This document shows, one piece after another, positions 2,787-58,172 of a DNA stretch of 64,000 nucleotides. The translations under genes were made by a program, and so were the position numbers. The DNA is taken from contig CALXUE010000002.1 of NCBI GenBank assembly GCA_944391615.1, positions 57,485 through 121,484 of the forward strand, in the 5' to 3' direction. This DNA comes from an uncultured Alphaproteobacteria bacterium (GTDB taxonomy: Bacteria > Pseudomonadota > Alphaproteobacteria > RF32 > CAG-239). Every line of letters begins with the position of its first letter. The stretch's first letter is position 1. The notes beneath the pieces are model-generated. The model had not been told where the DNA came from and searched no databases. It saw only the letters and a list, made by a program, of their open reading frames with translations.

Positions 2787-3857
2787 TTATAAAGATTGCG
2801 GCACAAGAGATTCTGAATCATCCTCAAACATAATCAACTGATTAGGCTGCCCGTCATCTAAGGAAGATTCGCCGTCTATATTTTGTGGAGAATTTACATC
2901 ATTCCCATTGTCACCAGAAACAACGTTGTTGTCAGCAGATATTTGCTTGTCAGTTGTTTGTACTGTTCCCAAATCCGGCAAAACAACATCAACAGGTTCA
3001 TTGTCAGTAATATCAGAGCTGCCATCATCGGTATTATCTGAACGATAAAGCACGGCATCAGAGGAGTCAGGCTTGATGAGTGATTCAGGTCCAATTTGTT
3101 GTCCATCAGCAGATTTTGGTGCCGGTTCAGTCGTAAAAATAACCAGATTTTTATTTCCGTCCGCATCAGATTCGTCATTTTCATAAGCAGCCTCAGTTTC
3201 AAACACAGTGTCACCGCGTTTGGGGGCAGGGGCTGTGTCTTTGACATTGGTTGAAGCTTGACTTTCAGCATTGTTTTGAGGTACTTTTTCATCAGAAGAA
3301 ATCTCTTTTTGAGACAAAGACGAACTTTCCTCATCTTGAAGTAAATCATTCTTCGTTGCATTGTCTTGAGAAATATCTGCATTTTCAGACAAAAGATTGC
3401 TTTGTTCCGGAAGTTGTTCTGCCATAACAATTTCATCGCGTACAGCTAATTCCTCAGCACTTAACAGCTTTGAAGTGTCGACTTGAGTATTTTCACATTG
3501 CAGCAACCACACATCATAAATCGGGTGGGCAACTGCGTGCAAAGCAGGGGAAGAAGAAACCATCCACCCCTTAAAGATATTCACTTCAGAGCCATCTTCA
3601 TGCTTATCGACCACATCAACAAAAGCAAAATTATCAGGTGTTTCCTCCGGTGGACGTGTTTTACAAGCTCTGACCACGATCGAAAAACTGCCAAACTTGA
3701 CCTCACCGTTAACGGGAGCTTCAAGGACACTGACTTTTCCGGTTAATTTGTTCATCGCCTGTAACTTAGCCGTGTTGGTGTCAATCTCACGAGCATAAAG
3801 ATTGGAAGCAGAAGACAAAAGCACCAAAGTTAAAGCAAATAAAAACTTATTTTTCAT
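2787..3857 (-). CDS. DUF2155 domain protein with long acidic C-terminal tail
   Basis: Signal peptide; NKLTGK, VRACKTRPPEE, FKGWMVSSSPALHAVAHPIYDVWLLQC. Confidence 0.8.
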   Translation of the reverse strand: MKNKFLFALTLVLLSSASNLYAREIDTNTAKLQAMNKLTGKVSVLEAPVNGEVKFGSFSIVVRACKTRPPEETPDNFAFVDVVDKHEDGSEVNIFKGWMVSSSPALHAVAHPIYDVWLLQCENTQVDTSKLLSAEELAVRDEIVMAEQLPEQSNLLSENADISQDNATKNDLLQDEESSSLSQKEISSDEKVPQNNAESQASTNVKDTAPAPKRGDTVFETEAAYENDESDADGNKNLVIFTTEPAPKSADGQQIGPESLIKPDSSDAVLYRSDNTDDGSSDITDNEPVDVVLPDLGTVQTTDKQISADNNVVSGDNGNDVNSPQNIDGESSLDDGQPNQLIMFEDDSESLVPQSL

Positions 3858-24323: not shown

Positions 24324-24671
24324 ATGATTTCACGCTTTCAAACTTATGTTTTAACAACATTTTTTGTATTATTTTTATTAGCCTTGTCATACATGTATAA
24401 CATAACGCCTGTTCTCGATTATGCCGAAAGCGTTTATTATAATGCCCAAAACATATATATATTAATACCAGCACTTATCAGCACGATAGTATTAATGAAA
24501 CAAGGGGGATACTGGCTGTTTATGTTTATCTGCGCCTTAGCTGATTCATTTTACATCTGCTATGATATGGGAGTAGGGATGAGCAATATGAGTTTTTTCA
24601 TCTTAAACATTGTCACCTTTTTAGGAATAGCCTTTTTGATTAATACCGTAATCGCCTTAATAAAAGGATAA
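24324..24671 (+). CDS. Small membrane protein
   Basis: GAGG RBS, about four hydrophobic segments. Confidence 0.6.
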   Translation: MISRFQTYVLTTFFVLFLLALSYMYNITPVLDYAESVYYNAQNIYILIPALISTIVLMKQGGYWLFMFICALADSFYICYDMGVGMSNMSFFILNIVTFLGIAFLINTVIALIKG

Positions 24672-25411: not shown

Positions 25412-25439
25412 TTGTCGCATAATATATATTCAGAGGCTA
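25412..25439 (+). other. attL: dif-like site (XerC arm, spacer, degenerate XerD arm)
   Basis: TTGTCGCATAA-TATATA-TTCAGAGGCTA. Confidence 0.88.
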
Positions 25440-25771: not shown

Positions 25772-26068
25772 ATGGAAAATTCAGCTAACAAAACAGAAAA
25801 ATCAAAAGTTGTAAATAAAATGAGATTTTACGCGATATTTGACAAGAAAAGCGAAAAATTTTTCACACCAAACGTAAAACCAAACAATGCATGCGCTTTG
25901 CGTGACTTAGAAAGTTTCTGCAAAAGCAAAAACAGCATAATCGGACAATTTCCGAAAGATTTTTCAATGTATTATCTCGGATATATTGACGAAGACAATG
26001 GGGAAATGTTCGGAGAAAAACAATTAATAGGAGAGGCACAAGACTATGTCGAAATCGAAAACAACTAA
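25772..26068 (+). CDS. Microvirus nonstructural protein VP5
   Basis: FYAIFDKK...FPKDFSMYYLGYIDEDNG; AGGAG RBS. Confidence 0.8.
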   Translation: MENSANKTEKSKVVNKMRFYAIFDKKSEKFFTPNVKPNNACALRDLESFCKSKNSIIGQFPKDFSMYYLGYIDEDNGEMFGEKQLIGEAQDYVEIENN

Positions 26069-26351: not shown

Positions 26352-26816
26352 ATGAAAATTGAAAATACAACTTATGATAGAACTAAAAAAACGCCGTTTA
26401 ACGGTTGGAATAAAATTAACAAATGTTGCATCACTTATGATGACAATTCTAAAATTCGTAGAAATGGCAAAGAAATAAGTCTTCAAGAATTTATAAATGC
26501 AAATAACCAAGACTGCACAATTTACCAAGTATATGACAAATACATGGGAAATATGAAATTGACACAACAAGCACTTTGCAACATTTCGCATAAAGTAGCA
26601 GACGAATTGTCAGGAATGGACTTGGCAACAGCATTGAATACGATGAACAAAGCTGAACAAGCTTGGAATAATTTACCACAAGCAATTAAACAAGAATTTG
26701 GAAACAGTGTCCAAGCGTTCCAAAAAAACGGTTTACAATGGGCAAAAAATAAAATTGCAGAATTTAACAAACCGAAACAAAAAGTTACTGAAGAAAAAAA
26801 AGAAAATAAGGAGTAA
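26352..26816 (+). CDS. Microvirus internal scaffolding protein VP3
   Basis: DLATALN..AEQAWNNLPQAIKQEFGNS VP3-like motif; immediately upstream of VP1. Confidence 0.7.
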   Translation: MKIENTTYDRTKKTPFNGWNKINKCCITYDDNSKIRRNGKEISLQEFINANNQDCTIYQVYDKYMGNMKLTQQALCNISHKVADELSGMDLATALNTMNKAEQAWNNLPQAIKQEFGNSVQAFQKNGLQWAKNKIAEFNKPKQKVTEEKKENKE

Positions 26817-26822
26817 TACACA

Positions 26823-28511
26823 ATGGCAAGAAACGAAGAAATCTCAGTTTATGGAATACCAGAAGTATACAAAAACCGCTATAATCACCAATATACATGT
26901 CGGAGAAAAACAACCTTCAACATAGGCGATATCGTACCGATTTATACCTCTATTTTGGTACAACCGGGAGATACAATCTCACTCAATGCACGTTCATTCT
27001 TTAGATTGACGACCTCACTATTTCCGCCTATGGACAATTTAACCGCGGACATATTCTGTTTTGCAGAAGATTGGCAAAATGTTTGGGAACACACAAAGGA
27101 ATTCTGGGGAGAAGATGAAGCAACACCATTTGATGAATTACCAGAATACACCGTGCCACAAATAGAAATAACGCCAACAGATGAAATTTTGCATAATGAT
27201 ATTTTGCATCACATATCATTACCACAAATGAAAGCAGACGAAGCCGCAATTCCTGAAATAACTCGCGTAAATAACATATCCGTAGAAGCTTTATCATATA
27301 GAACGTATATAGATATTTATAATAGATTTTTCCGAGACCAAAACTATATAACAAAATATGACCTTGAAACAGGAGATACACAAACAAAACCCGAAAATGG
27401 AACATGGGCAGGCAAAAAAAGAGCAAGAACTCTTTTAAAAGCGGCCAGATTGCACGACTATTTCTCAGGAACACCAGAAGCTCAAAAAGGTGACCCAGAA
27501 ACATTGCCTCTTGGAACAAGCGCACCAATCATAGGAACAGGGACAATCATAGGAAACGGAAAACCAGTAACTTGGACAAATGCTGACGGGACAAGTTCGA
27601 CTAATATTGCAACCGCGGCCTCAGGTGACGGGGAATTAAGACTAGCACCGTCATCCGGCTTGATTTCAACTATGTACGCTCCAACAGACGCAGCAGACGC
27701 ATACTTAAAACTTGATATGACGAACACTCAAGTTGACCTTGCGAATGCAGTCGCGAGTACCTTAAACGCTCTAAGGCTTGTAACAGCCAACCAGCACATT
27801 AAAGAAGAGTTAATGTGGTACGGCTCACGATTTGAAGAAATCATCTTTAGCCAATGGGGCGTTAGCATGGACGCGACCTCATTCCGTATTCCTGAATATC
27901 TTGGCGGAAAACGTATTTCTTTAAATATGGACACTGTTTTACAGACATCAAGCACAGACGCCGAAAGCCCACAAGGTAACGCGGCAGGATATTCCGTGAC
28001 TTTTGATGAAGACCATCTATTCACAAAATCATTTAAAACATGGCAAATTTTGATGATTTTAGTAGTGGTAAGACAAGACCACACATACTCATATGGCGTA
28101 GCAAATCAACACCTTAAAAAACGCAAATTTGACTTTTATTGGGATAAATTTGACGGATTAGGCGCACAGCCAAGAAGTAAAGCCGAACTTGCATTAACTG
28201 GAACAGATTCCGATAATGACACTTGGAACTTTGCGCCAGCTTGGAGAGAATACATCTCAGAAGTTGACCGCGCAACGGGTTTAATGGTGCCAGGGGTAGA
28301 AAACAGCCTTGCAAACTACACCTATAACGATGAATACACCAGTGTACCAAACTCAGGCGAAGAATGGATTAATGAAATTCCGAACTATGTCGACCGTACC
28401 TTGGTTGTACCATCATCAACAACAGACCAAATTATGGCTGATTTTGTTTTTGAAATCAACAAAACATCTATTATCAAAAATTACAAATTGCCAGGATTGG
28501 ACAAGCTCTAA
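26823..28511 (+). CDS. Microvirus major capsid protein VP1
   Basis: KTTFNIG...VQPGDT, PPMDNL, YNRFFRDQN, HDYF, RIPEYLGG, TKSF, AWREY; 562 aa. Confidence 0.93.
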   Translation: MARNEEISVYGIPEVYKNRYNHQYTCRRKTTFNIGDIVPIYTSILVQPGDTISLNARSFFRLTTSLFPPMDNLTADIFCFAEDWQNVWEHTKEFWGEDEATPFDELPEYTVPQIEITPTDEILHNDILHHISLPQMKADEAAIPEITRVNNISVEALSYRTYIDIYNRFFRDQNYITKYDLETGDTQTKPENGTWAGKKRARTLLKAARLHDYFSGTPEAQKGDPETLPLGTSAPIIGTGTIIGNGKPVTWTNADGTSSTNIATAASGDGELRLAPSSGLISTMYAPTDAADAYLKLDMTNTQVDLANAVASTLNALRLVTANQHIKEELMWYGSRFEEIIFSQWGVSMDATSFRIPEYLGGKRISLNMDTVLQTSSTDAESPQGNAAGYSVTFDEDHLFTKSFKTWQILMILVVVRQDHTYSYGVANQHLKKRKFDFYWDKFDGLGAQPRSKAELALTGTDSDNDTWNFAPAWREYISEVDRATGLMVPGVENSLANYTYNDEYTSVPNSGEEWINEIPNYVDRTLVVPSSTTDQIMADFVFEINKTSIIKNYKLPGLDKL

Positions 28512-28783
28512 TGGCTGAAAGTTTGGATTTATACATAGCCGAAATTGATGAGTTGGCGGGAAAAGTCCAAGCAGACTTGGTGCGTGCAGTAGACAACTAT
28601 TGCACGCTTTACCAAGCAATGCAAGACATTAAACCAACTGTCAAAAAAGAAAAACCGAACTATGACAAAGAAATCATAAAAAAGCTACAAAATGCAAGCT
28701 ATTCGGACAATTTGTTTAATAAAAAAATTCTTAAAAAGAAAGGGTTGAAAAAATGGGATTATTTAGCTCTATTGGCGGAATAA
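28511..28783 (+). CDS. Phage hypothetical protein
   Basis: 90-aa ORF coupled to the VP1 stop (TAATG). Confidence 0.55.
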   Translation: MAESLDLYIAEIDELAGKVQADLVRAVDNYCTLYQAMQDIKPTVKKEKPNYDKEIIKKLQNASYSDNLFNKKILKKKGLKKWDYLALLAE

Positions 28784-29418
28784 TTAACGATTTGACAGGC
28801 GTATCATCAAGTGCAAATCAAGGTTTTAAATATTCACAAGCTTTATCAAACCTCAATTTCGAACAACAAAAATATTTTGCACAAAATGCACACCAAATGG
28901 AAATGGCAGACCTCCAAAAAGCAGGACTCAACCCTGCATTAACCGCAACCGGTGGTTCAGGTGCTTCCGCAAGCGGGGGAGGAGGCATAGCCGGAAATGG
29001 TGGATCGCCAACGGCGAACATATTCGGTATTATGTCAGAATTAGCAGGAGTATTTAACGCAACTAAACAAACCAATGCAAACACCGAGCTACAAGGCGCA
29101 CAAGCAATTAAAACGCTTGCAGAAACAAAAAATCTACCTCAAGAGCTTAAAAATGACACTATGCGAGCACTTGCCGACAAAATGAACGCCGAAACAGGCG
29201 CAACAAATGCAAAGACAAACCAATGGAACGCATGGAACAACGAATATAACAATATGACTAATAGATTGCAATATCTACTTGATGAAAAACGCGCAAATGC
29301 TGGAAAACTCGGCGAATGGGTAGGAGCTGAAAACGCATCTAAAGTAACACGCGGAAAATATTCATTACCGAGAATGTTTTTCGACCTTCTATTCGATGGG
29401 CAAATTCCAAAATTTTAA
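28753..29418 (+). CDS. Microvirus DNA pilot protein VP2
   Basis: Gly-rich N-terminus, AHQMEMADLQKAGLNPAL signature, coiled-coil repeats. Confidence 0.88.
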   Translation: MGLFSSIGGIINDLTGVSSSANQGFKYSQALSNLNFEQQKYFAQNAHQMEMADLQKAGLNPALTATGGSGASASGGGGIAGNGGSPTANIFGIMSELAGVFNATKQTNANTELQGAQAIKTLAETKNLPQELKNDTMRALADKMNAETGATNAKTNQWNAWNNEYNNMTNRLQYLLDEKRANAGKLGEWVGAENASKVTRGKYSLPRMFFDLLFDGQIPKF

Positions 29419-29544
29419 AACACAAACAAAAATTAATTGAATTAATAAAATAAAAAGAAAAATGCAAAAAGGAATAAAACAGCGAGCCAAAAAATTGCCA
29501 ATAGTCCAATTAAAACCGCGTGAAATATCTTTTTTGTTAAACAT
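29389..29544 (-). CDS. Antisense single-TM phage peptide (51 aa; second copy 30109-30264)
   Basis: Manual translation MFNKKDISRGFNWTIGNFLARCFIPFCIFLFILLIQLIFVCVLKFWNLPIE; GAGG 7 nt upstream. Confidence 0.45.
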   Translation of the reverse strand: MFNKKDISRGFNWTIGNFLARCFIPFCIFLFILLIQLIFVCVLKFWNLPIE

Positions 29545-29576
29545 GTCAAAACCTCAGTCAATAGGAGTTAAAAGTA

Positions 29577-29732
29577 ATGTACGGAGCAAATAATAACACA
29601 AATAATTTATACGGTCAAGACAATGGATTTGATAGAATTAAAAGCGGAATTAATAACGCAAAATCTATTAAATCGGGCTATGACAAAATCAATGACATAG
29701 CTAAATCAATATTAGCAATGATTGCAGGTTAA
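29577..29732 (+). CDS. Small phage protein (51 aa; second copy 30297-30452)
   Basis: AGGAG RBS; MYGANNNTNNLYGQDNGFDRIKSGINNAKSIKSGYDKINDIAKSILAMIAG. Confidence 0.55.
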   Translation: MYGANNNTNNLYGQDNGFDRIKSGINNAKSIKSGYDKINDIAKSILAMIAG

Positions 29733-29880
29733 AAAAATGACCCAAAAGGACAGGGTATAAGCTTATACACCGATATTTTTAATTAATCGGTGTCACTGGG
29801 CGGTATAGTATCAAGGCGCACAAGCAATTAAAACGCTTGCAGAAACAAAAAATCTACCTCAAGAGCTTAAAAATGACACT

Positions 29881-30138
29881 ATGCGAGCACTTGCCGACAA
29901 AATGAACGCCGAAACAGGCGCAACAAATGCAAAGACAAACCAATGGAACGCATGGAACAACGAATATAACAATATGACTAATAGATTGCAATATCTACTT
30001 GATGAAAAACGCGCAAATGCTGGAAAACTCGGCGAATGGGTAGGAGCTGAAAACGCATCTAAAGTAACACGCGGAAAATATTCATTACCGAGAATGTTTT
30101 TCGACCTTCTATTCGATGGGCAAATTCCAAAATTTTAA
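29881..30138 (+). pseudogene. Duplicated C-terminal fragment of VP2
   Basis: Identical to the last 85 aa of VP2; created by the duplication. Confidence 0.75.
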
Positions 30139-30514
30139 AACACAAACAAAAATTAATTGAATTAATAAAATAAAAAGAAAAATGCAAAAAGGAATAAAAC
30201 AGCGAGCCAAAAAATTGCCAATAGTCCAATTAAAACCGCGTGAAATATCTTTTTTGTTAAACATGTCAAAACCTCAGTCAATAGGAGTTAAAAGTAATGT
30301 ACGGAGCAAATAATAACACAAATAATTTATACGGTCAAGACAATGGATTTGATAGAATTAAAAGCGGAATTAATAACGCAAAATCTATTAAATCGGGCTA
30401 TGACAAAATCAATGACATAGCTAAATCAATATTAGCAATGATTGCAGGTTAAAAAAATGACCCAAAAGGACAGGGTATAAGCTTATACACCGATATTTTT
30501 AATTAATCGGTGTC

Positions 30515-30552
30515 ACTGGGCGGTATAGTATCAAGTAGACCAACCGCCCAGT
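30515..30552 (-). other. Putative rolling-circle origin hairpin with CTACTTG/ATA nick motif in the loop
   Basis: Stem actgggcggt/accgcccagt, 18-nt loop, minus strand reads CTACTTGATA (30538-30529); just upstream of rep. Confidence 0.7.
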
Positions 30553-30596
30553 TTTTTTTCCTAAAAAAAAATCCAAAAAAAGAGCAGGGGGCGCAA

Positions 30597-31724
30597 ATGG
30601 TTTGTTTATGTCCTAAAGTCGCATACCAAAGGAAATTTTATCCAATAGACGGCAATATATCCGAAAGAAACTTAAAAAGATTAAATAAAATATCATTTCA
30701 ATATCACAGAGGTTGGAAACAAATATTAATTCCATGCGGAGAATGTCCAGCGTGCAAACTTGCAAAAGCTAACGAATGGGCTGTCAGAATTAACAACGAA
30801 GCAGAAACATGGAAAAATAAAGGAATTTTTGTCACCTTAACTTATAATACACCAAATTTGCCACTTACAAAAGACGGATTAATGACCCTACAAAAAAGGG
30901 ACATGCAACTATTCAAGAAAAGATTAAGAAAATACATATCGAAACATAACGAGGGAATAACCGAATGGATTAATCCCAAAAACGGAAAAATTGAAAAACC
31001 GATTCGAACTTTCGAATGTGGAGAATATGGGCCGACAAAAGGAAGACCACATTATCACCAAATCATATTTAACTGGATACCAAACGACCTAGTCGAGAAA
31101 GAAATATCAAAAGACGGATATCCACTTTATAAATCAAAAACACTACAAAAAATATGGGGCAAAGGCTTTGTTTTGATAGGAATGATAAGCTTTGAAAGTG
31201 CCAGCTATGTTGCAAGATATACCATGAAAAAAGCAGGACTTGCAAAAACAAAACGTGTCTATTATGACGCTTGCGAATACAATGAAGAAACCAAAAATTT
31301 TGAAATGAAAACAAAATACAAAACAGAAAAGGGGGAGATAGAACCAGAATTTATAACGATGTCAACATCGCCAGGGATTGGATATTGCTATTTTATAAAA
31401 AATCAAGAAAGTATTATAAAAAACAATGGGTTATTGATAAAAGTTAAAGGAAAAGTAAAATTAAAATCAATACCACGATATTATAGAAAAATCATGGAAC
31501 GCCAAAACTGGAAAAAATACGAAAAATGGAAATACGAAAACCAAAAACAAGCAGACGAAAAACAAAAAAAACTTGTCAACAGCTACAAACTGCCAGAAGA
31601 AATGATTTTCGAATTAAAAGTGCAATTTGTAAACAATATTTTTCTTGACACAATTAGAAATAAATTTAACTTATTGAAAAGAAACAATATTTTATATGAC
31701 GAAGAAACAAAAGAAGATGAATAA
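30597..31724 (+). CDS. Microvirus replication initiator VP4 (HUH Rep)
   Basis: PCGECPAC, FVTLTY (motif I), CGEYG..RPHYH (motif II), YVARYTMKK (motif III). Confidence 0.95.
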   Translation: MVCLCPKVAYQRKFYPIDGNISERNLKRLNKISFQYHRGWKQILIPCGECPACKLAKANEWAVRINNEAETWKNKGIFVTLTYNTPNLPLTKDGLMTLQKRDMQLFKKRLRKYISKHNEGITEWINPKNGKIEKPIRTFECGEYGPTKGRPHYHQIIFNWIPNDLVEKEISKDGYPLYKSKTLQKIWGKGFVLIGMISFESASYVARYTMKKAGLAKTKRVYYDACEYNEETKNFEMKTKYKTEKGEIEPEFITMSTSPGIGYCYFIKNQESIIKNNGLLIKVKGKVKLKSIPRYYRKIMERQNWKKYEKWKYENQKQADEKQKKLVNSYKLPEEMIFELKVQFVNNIFLDTIRNKFNLLKRNNILYDEETKEDE

Positions 31725-31728
31725 TTGA

Positions 31729-31920
31729 TTAAGTTATACACAATCGCTACAGCGCATTGTGAGGTGCGCGCTCATGTGCATAACTTAAAAAAAAAATAAT
31801 TTTATATATTGACAACAAAAAAAATTTGTGATTCCGTATAATCACGGACAAGGTGAATTTGCTCTTTTTCACCTTGTCTATCATAAAGAGTTAACAAAAA
31901 GAGCAAAGAAAGGGCTAAAA
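31729..31920 (+). promoter_or_regulatory. Structured phage intergenic region and leader ending in an RBS before the attR ATG
   Basis: Several inverted repeats, TTGACA 31809 and TATAAT 31837 (22-bp spacing, non-ideal), AAAGGG before ATG 31921. Confidence 0.5.
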
Positions 31921-31948
31921 ATGTCGCATAATATATATTATGTTAAAT
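31921..31948 (+). other. dif: dif site (attR), canonical XerC/XerD target
   Basis: ATGTCGCATAA-TATATA-TTATGTTAAAT; XerD arm identical to E. coli dif; KOPS converge here. Confidence 0.93.
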
Positions 31949-32002
31949 ATAACTGTTTTTAAGACACTAAAATAAGATAAAAAGAATATGTGTACAACAA
32001 AA

Positions 32003-33595
32003 CTATATTGCAGCTTTAATCAATTCTTGAGTATAAATATGCTGCGGCTTTTCAAAAAGCAACTTTGTCGGCTGACACTCAACAATTTTTCCTTGATTCA
32101 AAACAGCCACCCAATCAGACATAGCACGAACAACACGCATATCATGCGTAATAAAAATATAACTAAGCTGCTGTTCATTCTGAATACGTTTTAACAAGCT
32201 TAAAACCTGAGCTTGAGTCGTCACATCAAGCGCCGATGTCGGTTCATCCAAAATCAAAATTTTAGGTTTCAAAATTAAACTTCGTGCTATGGCAATCCTT
32301 TGCCGCTGTCCACCTGAAAATTCAAACGGATACTTATCTAGCACATCGGCATCTAACTCAACTGATTTCAAAATATCAATAACTTTACGTTTTTTTTCAG
32401 CCTTTCCCATTTCCGGAAAATGAACATTTAATCCTTCCGCAACAATCTGCTCGACAGTCATTCTAGGATTAAGCGACGTATAAGGATCTTGAAACACAAT
32501 CTGCAAATTACGCCTAAACTGTTTATTATCAAAGCTTTCTGCAGACTTTTGCAATAATTTTATTTCTCCGCCAGCCTTAGGGTTAAGTTTGGCCAATGCA
32601 AACCCCAAAGTTGTCTTTCCTGAACCAGATTCTCCGACAATACCCAAACACTCACCTTGTTTTAATATCAAATCAACCCTATCCAACACCGAATGATAAG
32701 TCAAAACCCTTCCCCAAAAATTCTTCTTTTCCGGATACTTAACAGTAATATTTTTTCCTTCTAAAACAATAGGTTGATTATCATTTTGCAACAAGTTACT
32801 CTTTTTTTCATCAAGTTTCACCGCTTTCAAAAGAGATTGAGTGTAGCTTTGTTTTGGCGCATTAAAAATTTGTTCAACTCCGCCCTGCTCTACGATTTGC
32901 CCATTTTTCATCACACACACACGGTGGGCAATTTTTCCGACCAAGTTCAAATCATGGCTGATAAACAAAATCGCCATACCCATTTTTTGCTGTAATTTCA
33001 ATAACAAATCAATAATTTGTTTTTGCACGGTAACATCCAAAGCCGTTGTTGGTTCATCAGCAATCAATAACTTCGGCCGATTTGCGATTGCCATGGCAAT
33101 CATAACACGTTGCCTTTGACCTCCGGACAACTCATAAGGATAAGCCTTAAATTTTTGTTTAGCTTGTTTAATTCCCGTTGCATTCAAAAGGCGTATTGCC
33201 TCACGGACAGCTTGTTTTTCCGTCATTTTTTGATGTAATTGTATAGCTTCGACAATTTGTTGCCCAACTCTATGTAACGGGTTAAGAGAAGACATCGGTT
33301 CTTGAAAAATAAAAGCCACATCCCCACCCCGCATTTTCTGTAATTGAGCATCATTCATAGTCATAATATTTTGATTTTCAAACAAAATTTCAGATTTATT
33401 TTGATAATCAGCCCCTTCGACTAATTTCAAAACAGACAAAGCCGAAACCGACTTACCAGAACCTGACTCACCCACCAACCCTAAAATTTCACCGTTTTGA
33501 ATGGCAAAATTAACATCATGAACAACCGTTTGACCATTAAAAGAAATTGTCAAATGCCTGACATCAAGCAAAATATTATCTTTAATATCCGCCAT
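32003..33595 (-). CDS. yejF: Peptide ABC transporter, dual ATPase (YejF-like)
   Basis: Two GESGSGK and two SGGQRQR motifs. Confidence 0.85.
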   Translation of the reverse strand: MADIKDNILLDVRHLTISFNGQTVVHDVNFAIQNGEILGLVGESGSGKSVSALSVLKLVEGADYQNKSEILFENQNIMTMNDAQLQKMRGGDVAFIFQEPMSSLNPLHRVGQQIVEAIQLHQKMTEKQAVREAIRLLNATGIKQAKQKFKAYPYELSGGQRQRVMIAMAIANRPKLLIADEPTTALDVTVQKQIIDLLLKLQQKMGMAILFISHDLNLVGKIAHRVCVMKNGQIVEQGGVEQIFNAPKQSYTQSLLKAVKLDEKKSNLLQNDNQPIVLEGKNITVKYPEKKNFWGRVLTYHSVLDRVDLILKQGECLGIVGESGSGKTTLGFALAKLNPKAGGEIKLLQKSAESFDNKQFRRNLQIVFQDPYTSLNPRMTVEQIVAEGLNVHFPEMGKAEKKRKVIDILKSVELDADVLDKYPFEFSGGQRQRIAIARSLILKPKILILDEPTSALDVTTQAQVLSLLKRIQNEQQLSYIFITHDMRVVRAMSDWVAVLNQGKIVECQPTKLLFEKPQHIYTQELIKAAI

Positions 33596-34617
33596 CAACG
33601 CCTCCTTCTCGGATTAAAAGCATCACGAACACCTTCACCGATAAAAATAAGCAATGTCAATAACATAGACAATACAATAAAAATCGTAATTCCAATCCAA
33701 GGCGCCTGTAAATTATCTTTGCCTTGCCGCACCAAATCCCCCAAGGAAGGATAATCAGCCGACAACCCCAATCCCAAAAAATCCAAAGCACTTAACGCCA
33801 CAATTGCATCAGAAAGCAAAAACGGCACATAAGTAATCGTTGCCACAACTGCATTAGGCAAAATATGCTTAAAAATAATTTTAACATTGCTAACACCTAA
33901 AGCCTTTGCCGCTTTAACAAACTCAAAATTACGCGTACGCAAAAACTCTGCACGAACCACCGGAATCAAAGCACTCCACGAAAATAACAGCATAATAAAC
34001 AATAAAGTCATAAAACTAGGAACAAACACACTTGCAACAATTATCAATATAAAAAGCTGAGGTAAAGCATCCCAAATTTCCAAGAACCTCTGCACAAACA
34101 AATCAATTTTTCCACCAAAATATCCTTGCACTGCGCCAATAACAATTCCGATAACTGAGGCAAAAAAAGTCAACACAACCGAAAAAACAACCGAAAGTCT
34201 AATTCCATAAAGGATACGCGCCACAATGTCCCGCCCCTCATCATCAGTTCCCAACCAATGTTGAGCTGAAGGCGGCGTCGGAGTTGGTTTATCCAAATCA
34301 TAATCAACAGAGTTAAAAGAATATGGAATAACAGGCATCACCATCCAACCGTTTTGCATAATTTTTTGCACAATAAATGGATCTTTATAATCAGCCTCAG
34401 TAGCAAAATCTCCGTCAAAATACTCATCCGTATATGTTTGAATAAACGGAAATAAAATCTCTCCTTTATATTTCACAACCAGAGGCTTGTCATTGGCAAT
34501 AATCTCAGCCAAAAAGGACAACAAAAAAATACCAAGAAACAGCACCAACGACCAATAAGCGCGCCGATTTGCCTTAAAATTCTGCCATCGTCTTTGGTTT
34601 ATCTTAGATAAAAACAT
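33595..34617 (-). CDS. yejE: Peptide ABC permease (YejE-like)
   Basis: INQRRWQNFKANRRAYWS, HWLGTDDEGRD, GEGVRDAFNP. Confidence 0.85.
   Translation of the reverse strand: MFLSKINQRRWQNFKANRRAYWSLVLFLGIFLLSFLAEIIANDKPLVVKYKGEILFPFIQTYTDEYFDGDFATEADYKDPFIVQKIMQNGWMVMPVIPYSFNSVDYDLDKPTPTPPSAQHWLGTDDEGRDIVARILYGIRLSVVFSVVLTFFASVIGIVIGAVQGYFGGKIDLFVQRFLEIWDALPQLFILIIVASVFVPSFMTLLFIMLLFSWSALIPVVRAEFLRTRNFEFVKAAKALGVSNVKIIFKHILPNAVVATITYVPFLLSDAIVALSALDFLGLGLSADYPSLGDLVRQGKDNLQAPWIGITIFIVLSMLLTLLIFIGEGVRDAFNPRRRR

Positions 34618-57014: not shown

Positions 57015-58172
<1,158 letters not shown>

Follow-up and report, generated by a model that had tools for sequence, protein, structure and literature searches.

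The locus studied here raises the question of why a perfect tandem duplication inside an integrated phage should end in the loop of a hairpin directly in front of the phage's replication gene. It lies in a 64,000-nt stretch of DNA from an uncultured alphaproteobacterium of the RF32, CAG-239 lineage (assembly GCA_944391615.1, contig CALXUE010000002.1, forward-strand positions 57,485 to 121,484), hereafter the window, in which position 1 is the first letter. Judged by its genes and flanks, the element that carries the duplication is an intact gokushovirus-type Microviridae prophage integrated at dif, presumably by XerCD, of the kind that Kirchberger and Ochman (2020; PMC7062461) report for Escherichia coli. 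The duplication starts inside the gene for the pilot protein VP2 and runs to the hairpin upstream of the gene for Rep (VP4), the predicted nicking enzyme.

A perfect 720-bp duplication ending in a conserved hairpin loop

The duplication consists of two tandem copies of a 720-bp unit (Table 1). Positions 29092-29815 are the same as 29812-30535, with 724 of 724 nucleotides identical at a period of 720 and no mismatch; the match ends on the left at 29091 (a, against t at 29811) and on the right at 29816 (g, against t at 30536). The joint can be placed anywhere inside a common 4-nt CAAG. A perfect repeat of 724 nt is not a chance match, and the claim of a preliminary description of this DNA, that a 720-bp duplication sits at a nick motif, was borne out. 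The three minus-strand readings given there, for the hairpin (about 30531/30532), for VP2 (about 29091/29092) and for the joint (29811/29812), were present exactly as written. In the whole assembly (1.57 Mb, 32 contigs), the 25-mers of the joint, of the left boundary and of the intact origin occurred once each, and neither the unit nor any other part of the phage was found on any other contig. No gene is broken by the duplication; VP2, inside which it starts, is whole in copy 1 because this copy continues to the normal VP2 stop.

The right end of the duplication sits in the hairpin loop, within its invariant core. The coding-strand sequence of this loop is TATAGTATCAAGTAG and that of the opposite strand CTACTTGATACTATA. 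Folded as DNA, the hairpin reached -13.9 kcal/mol (z = -4.9), with 0 of 200 shuffles equally stable. The VP2 breakpoint showed no significant local fold (z -0.11), and the novel joint, which is a half-origin without the right arm, folds weakly (z -2.0). The duplication alone fixes the break to within 30531-30536, and the joint interval, 29811-29816, contains the predicted nick bond. By our own estimate, the probability that a breakpoint placed at random, and ambiguous over 5 positions, covers a given position of the 5.8-kb phage is about 2 x 5/5790 = 0.002.

The hairpin was then compared among 17 relatives, a non-random set made of one IMG/VR contig and 16 GenBank records, the latter from the top of 60 rows of a tblastn list that ran to 2,994 records. 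An equivalent hairpin was found just upstream of Rep in all 18 aligned sequences (the window and the 17 relatives). In this alignment, 94.4% of the stem cells were paired, versus 28-41% with the partners slid, and double changes were seen in 8 of the 10 stem pairs, while one-sided (G-T) changes were seen in none. The loop core C.AG was invariant across the 18 rows, and the coding-strand loops of the clade read TATAG..TCAAGT. Free relatives known from faecal viromes share the gene order of the window prophage; their Reps are 41-54% identical and their genomes measure 5.7-5.9 kb. An intrinsic terminator was considered and rejected, the loop being 13-20 nt long in the aligned relatives and a run of at least 6 T following the stem in only 2 of 18. 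Because G-T pairs are absent and the T-run is found in just these two, the alignment supports a conserved DNA-level structure rather than a terminator. A circovirus-like nonamer on the plus-strand loop was also dropped, as it is not kept in the relatives. The two small hairpins that precede the origin hairpin may serve as the start signal of the complementary strand. By eye and uncounted, counterparts of them with changed stems were seen in the five closest relatives.

The nick motif and the orientation of the loop

On the minus strand, the loop holds ACTTGATA, which matches the phiX174-type cleavage motif CTTG/AT (a slash marks the cut here and below). The phiX174 viral strand reads CAACTTG/ATA, and in its record the origin is annotated at the A that follows CTTG (4306). 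A 10-mer, TCTACTTGAT, is common to the minus-strand loop of the window and the hairpin loop of Chp2, where it lies on the coding strand (2904-2941). In SpV4 (512-544) and phiMH2K (3296-3335), too, the best hairpin holds the ACTTG core in its loop with coding-strand orientation, as it does in 5 of 6 further GenBank gokushoviruses scanned whole, with none in the blackfly virus. Since the loop is homologous to those of Chp2 and the classical gokushoviruses and to the phiX174 motif, the assignment of a minus-strand nick at CTTG/ATA, as put forward in the preliminary description, rests on real homology and remains a prediction from it.

The comparison with phiX174 also brought out a difference in strand. 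The two phages have homologous Reps with HUH and YxxxY motifs and share the ACTTG/ATA core at the predicted cut. In phiX174, however, gene A itself contains the origin, which is part of the coding (viral) strand and has no hairpin loop around it; the predicted origin of the window prophage lies between genes, within a hairpin loop of which the non-coding strand carries the motif. A phiX174-type origin has its motif on the coding strand; in all 18 of the 18 aligned clade members it was found on the non-coding strand. The same orientation holds throughout this Rep clade (the window and loci L003-L013, L033-L038, L051 and L052). The turkey-gut virus phiCA82 is also of this flipped type, as is L052. 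No conserved alternative hairpin with a coding-strand motif was found in the clade's three complete free genomes or in the prophage. Counts of ACTTG per strand, taken as a sign of motif avoidance, showed no consistent pattern (the phiX174 viral strand has 6). Exact scans with 18-mers of the origin and joint returned five metagenome, two genome and one viral contig, all unrelated chance matches, and a single-protein Rep scan of viral contigs found no relative.

To place the flipped loop among gokushoviruses, a 13-Rep alignment was used to take the best 80 of 589 confirmed IMG/VR contigs, which were oriented by Rep and searched for a perfect stem of at least 7 bp with a loop of 6-26 nt holding ACTTG[AT] or its complement. 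Among these best 80, the motif was on the Rep strand in 47, on the other strand only in 7 and on neither in 26, against a mononucleotide-shuffle expectation per 80 of 1.8 (Rep strand) and 1.6 (other strand) at this stem length. When the stem was raised to at least 8 bp, 42 and 4 were observed versus 0 and 0.2 in the shuffles. The flipped loop of L124 (4187-4216) is the exact reverse complement of the direct loop of L070 (1968-1997), and the arms are near-identical. Such a pattern looks like a pure loop inversion and is the outcome expected from recombination between the two arms.

In a quick Rep tree of 80 rows, from which the blackfly row was excluded, the window fell in a 19-row clade in which every row is flipped (Shimodaira-Hasegawa-like approximate likelihood ratio test, SH-aLRT, 95), with SpV4 as a long-branched sister. 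Loop orientation needs 5 changes on this tree, of which at least 2 are forced by supported branches, and a careful 27-row tree concurs. The mean AT skew of the coding strand was +0.32 in 25 flipped rows versus +0.01 in 55 direct rows, and in the IMG/VR rows alone the Mann-Whitney p was 2.6e-4, with relatives that are not independent. An independent-pairs comparison offered just 2 supported contrasts, and phiMH2K and one Ciona-gut virus are A-rich despite a coding-strand motif. Because the relatives are non-independent and only two contrasts are supported, base composition as a strand indicator is a hint, suggestive only.

As far as these alignments go, the window's clade and a few other lineages carry the predicted origin loop in flipped orientation with respect to their genes, which is a newer result than the duplication. 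Microviridae are plus-sense by the textbook, their virion DNA having the same sense as the mRNAs, and rolling-circle synthesis packages the nicked strand. Because the nicked strand is the one packaged, flipped phages would package the antisense strand. We therefore advance, tentatively and somewhat short of an even chance, that the loop can invert between its own arms, that the flipped phages would be negative-sense Microviridae, and that the 720-bp duplication may be the sole physical trace of a Rep cut there. The A-rich coding strand of the flipped genomes fits antisense packaging.

How the duplication may have arisen

The duplication probably is an illegitimate join dependent on a Rep nick, a known kind of event, and we hold this with slightly more confidence than doubt. 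The hairpin at 30515-30552 would be the rolling-circle origin of the prophage, and Rep would cut its loop at CTTG/ATA on the strand opposite the genes. Synthesis from the nick would displace the minus strand leftwards, via the small open reading frames into VP2, and the displaced or broken end would be joined aberrantly at the 4-nt CTTG microhomology 720 nt off, giving the joint ...GCGCCTTG/ATACTATA... This joint may have existed as a 720-nt circle, threaded in by the assembler or recombined back, or as a direct tandem duplication in the chromosome. We infer that Rep made the break, and likewise the strand cut and the physical form of the product; a mirror event on the plus strand yields the identical joint, and the joint alone cannot tell the strand. 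That an active Rep is implied, as the preliminary description has it, is likewise a supposition; the gene is intact and has all its catalytic motifs.

Several known systems resemble such an event. The A protein of phiX174 resolves plasmids that carry two of its origins, yielding a pair of smaller circles, and the proposed 720-nt product follows the same logic; in the prophage, the second site is a 4-nt match, whereas the phiX174 case has a full origin copy. Illegitimate recombination at rolling-circle nick sites was reportedly described by Michel and Ehrlich in 1986 for the M13/f1 gene II protein and for pC194-type plasmids. These cases are said to have one end tied to the Rep nick and a second end at sites of scant homology or none, and to give deletions, duplications and small circles; they were experimental plasmid constructs, whereas the present one is a single natural prophage event known from an assembly. 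The "RCORI" sequences derived from pC194 in the appendix of PMC7072734 contain CTTGATA. Subgenomic DNAs of eukaryotic Rep-encoding single-stranded DNA viruses are alike in being small circles that retain the origin, with recombination tied to the virion-strand origin, but they carry a complete origin and were physically demonstrated (reviewed in PMC3187698), whereas the proposed 720-nt unit carries half a hairpin and is hypothetical.

A number of points, both in the phage and in the data behind the contig, weigh against the Rep-dependent join. The VP2 site shares only CTTG with the origin and has T after the cut, versus A or G in all origins. Three CTTG sites on that strand lie nearer the origin and were not used, one of which (TCTTG/AC at 29616) is more origin-like. 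A nick on the minus strand runs counter to the plus-sense polarity accepted for Microviridae, a conflict that the preliminary description passed over. Neither a mapped or proposed gokushovirus origin nor a negative-sense member of Microviridae was found in the literature searched; older papers on Chp2, SpV4 and phiMH2K, which lie outside it, may mention these hairpins. The hairpin could also have another role. As to the data, the joint and its copy number are those of the assembled contig. The contig ends of the assembly share exact 77-mers and no 99-mers, and it appears to be a de Bruijn assembly with a largest k of 77; if so, the arrangement of a 720-nt repeat in two copies would depend on heuristics of pairing or coverage.

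Other samples count on the same side. Logan contigs of four runs (X1, X2, X6 and X7, from four studies), all of samples other than the source, were compared over 29762-33600; the best of 18 partially matching runs holds 0.27 of the sampled words. X2, X6 and X7 carry prophages 90-97% identical to that of the window, in single copy, and in X6 a 37.9-kb contig spans Rep and dif into the host ABC gene. The matches in these three runs begin at 29812. Ahead of that point, the unmatched letters of X6 and X7 correspond to VP2 on the left side of 29092, which is the un-duplicated form. The joint was found in 0 of 4 runs, three of which cover the place as an un-duplicated boundary and one of which (X1) is without cover of 29762-29980; being other samples, they are silent on the source. 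As the relatives in three other runs are single-copy, the duplication is recent and private to this assembly.

The same comparison gave two further observations. At 30057-30197 (equal to 29337-29477), X1, X2, X6 and X7 have about 89-141 diverged letters, similar in length, in place of the end of VP2 and the following spacer; this is a local hypervariable patch. In X1, over 32792-33600, the host flank is 99-100% identical (0-2 differences in 245-566 nt) but the Rep region only about 93%, and X1 appears to hold the same host with a different prophage variant.

The preliminary description had taken the VP2 "pseudo-site" as a point of premature cleavage and ligation; sequence-specific termination there is not favoured. 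Since the VP2 site shares only CTTG and the three nearer sites were bypassed, a microhomology join at a Rep-made nick is favoured over faithful premature termination. These same features could point away from Rep altogether. The alternative that survives best, unlikely as we consider it, is a Rep-independent tandem duplication by slippage or template switching between the two CAAG, perhaps at a fork stalled by the hairpin, with the position at the origin coincidental or structural. Events of this type commonly show a 4-nt microhomology, single-stranded DNA of the hairpin folds stably, the second endpoint is without origin-like context while closer CTTG sites were skipped, and the genome has other perfect in-contig repeats. 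The endpoint, however, falls in the invariant 4 nt of the 18-nt loop and not at the stem base, for which the chance estimate given above applies.

A pure assembly artefact is a shade less probable again. The prophage would then have one copy of the unit and no molecule would bear the joint at a meaningful frequency, the joint having come from a graph error or chimeric reads and the loop having been walked once. It would account for copies that are 100% identical, as if one graph edge had been used twice, for a 720-nt repeat beyond k-mer resolution in an apparent k=77 assembly, and for related prophages elsewhere that are all single-copy. An artefact would have no reason to land on a conserved origin motif, and the same assembly keeps and resolves other exact in-contig repeats of 574-863 nt. 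Furthermore, with de Bruijn assemblers the k-mers of a joint should derive from reads and are not invented, and low-coverage chimeras are normally pruned, which counts against an artefact. Long exact repeats were observed at G000 C3:10026-12900, C10:36925-37804 and C10:1-700, including an 863-nt repeat whose copies are spaced 1293 apart and perfect tandem arrays with a period of 313-315.

That the hairpin is not a Rep nick site but a complementary-strand initiation signal, a Rep-binding site or a terminator, with the break reflecting that function (a primer start or a stall), is quite improbable: the window hairpin is followed by T8, and section 3.8 of PMC9865509 describes hairpins conserved beside Rep in two clades of very small microviruses, considers negative-strand initiation for them and leaves their function undecided, but the T-run is restricted to the two relatives noted above, none of the 170 paired cells is a G-T pair, a point against a structure formed in RNA only, and the loop contains the phiX174 cleavage motif.

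Prophage anatomy, integration at dif and significance

Without the extra copy, the prophage measures about 5.79 kb between the dif sites, and all its assigned genes lie on the plus strand. A Phage_F capsid, a VP3 scaffold, a VP2 pilot protein and an HUH Rep are encoded in a one-strand genome of the 4-6.5-kb class, as in gokushoviruses. PHROG and Pfam matches together with translation identify a Microviridae prophage with intact VP1, VP2, VP3 and Rep/VP4, and the remaining core genes are all intact. Rep carries the motifs FVTLTY, HYHQIIF and YVARYTMKK (two tyrosines; an HUH enzyme), and H152, H154, Y204 and Y208 were invariant across 13 aligned Reps. The flanking host genes encode an outer-membrane beta-barrel protein and an ABC transporter. 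A 115-aa open reading frame without a PHROG or Pfam match lies between the porin gene and dif (24324-24671), and some 700 nt of AT-rich DNA without coding sequence come after it. The interval from Rep to dif holds two strong hairpins that overlap (31847-31907), with stems of 11 and 12 bp, and these were not seen in the scanned free relatives.

Table 1 Features of the prophage, its duplication and its predicted origin in the window (aa, amino acids; E values follow the matched family).
Feature	Position	Strand	Description
attL, hybrid dif-like site	25412..25439		XerC-side arm and 6-nt centre match host dif; other arm degenerate
Small DNA-binding or non-structural protein	25772..26068	+	98 aa; phrog_1670, E 1.5e-20
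VP3 internal scaffolding protein	26352..26816	+	154 aa; Pfam Chlamy_scaf PF09675, 4.4e-12; phrog_1642
VP1 major capsid protein	26823..28511	+	562 aa; Pfam Phage_F PF02305, 4.4e-86; phrog_514, 6.1e-119
Open reading frame	between VP1 and VP2	+	90 aa
VP2 DNA pilot protein	28753..29418	+	221 aa; phrog_8693, 2e-18
Duplication copy 1	29092..29811		720 nt; 100% identity to copy 2
Content of copy 1			VP2 codons ~114 to stop; open reading frames 29462-29593 and 29577-29732; two upstream hairpins; left arm and half loop of origin hairpin
Left breakpoint	29092..29095		CAAG in VP2 (CTTG on minus strand); minus-strand context gcgcCTTG/tagc
Novel joint 29811/29812	29795..29826		Left arm and loop of origin hairpin through TAT-CAAG, fused to VP2-internal sequence
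Duplication copy 2	29812..30531		720 nt; VP2 fragment truncated 5' and second set of small open reading frames
Two small hairpins upstream of origin hairpin	30475-30488; 30487-30513		Palindrome; 8-bp stem; repeated in copy 1 (29755-29793; 8-bp stem 29767-29793)
Conserved origin-type hairpin	30515..30552		10-bp stem, 18-nt loop; a short way upstream of Rep
Predicted Rep nick	between 30531 and 30532	-	CTTG/ATA, by homology with phiX174 G4305/A4306
Rep (VP4)	30597..31724	+	375 aa; phrog_942, 4.2e-90; Pfam REP_ORF2-G2P, 1.6e-17
attR, complete dif 28-mer	31922..31949		Sole full dif in the assembly

Four genus relatives that lack the phage (L023, L025, L026 and L027) have the dif 28-mer of the host at the equivalent locus with 1 mismatch, and a half-conserved dif-like site was found 3' of Rep in free relatives (L003 at 4265, also L007 and L009). 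No integrase was found among the 10 open reading frames scanned against PHROGs, with some small ones outside the scan, and a Rep match was found in 0 of 60 related genomes searched. For E. coli gokushoviruses, XerC/XerD-dependent integration was demonstrated in PMC7062461. The enterobacterial prophages described there are alike in their dif-adjacent site and in flanks of one conserved dif and one degenerate phage dif and, as far as the open reading frames scanned here go, in showing no integrase. The window prophage differs from them in its host (a 1.57-Mb genome of 38% GC), in its length (5.8 kb, against 4.3-4.7 kb) and in its gene order. The text of PMC7062461 is without mention of an origin of replication, hairpin, tandem, duplication or rolling circle, and its supplementary lists of dif genomes may include this clade. 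Taken from sequence comparison, the group formed by the window prophage and its free faecal-virome relatives is probably temperate via XerCD in a non-enterobacterial host. Over window positions 1-64000, GC skew was negative on both sides of dif (about -0.1 left and -0.2 right) with no sign change, which is unexpected for a replication terminus; the terminus is not confirmed by skew.

Gokushoviruses are the dominant single-stranded DNA phages of animal guts. At 12% over unit length, the duplicated prophage would probably be too long to package, going by work on phiX174, and the duplication, if real, would be ordinary Rep-associated illegitimate recombination. What the locus offers for the family is a comparative definition of the putative gokushovirus origin, as a co-varying stem with a loop holding TACTTGAT, and one natural rearrangement that places a break at the predicted bond. 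The whole-clade inversion of the loop relative to the genes, with the TACTTGAT-type motif on the non-coding strand, makes the polarity of the packaged strand directly testable. If the polarity is reversed, the plus-sense textbook rule for Microviridae would have to be qualified, and these phages would come out differently in virome methods that take strand into account.

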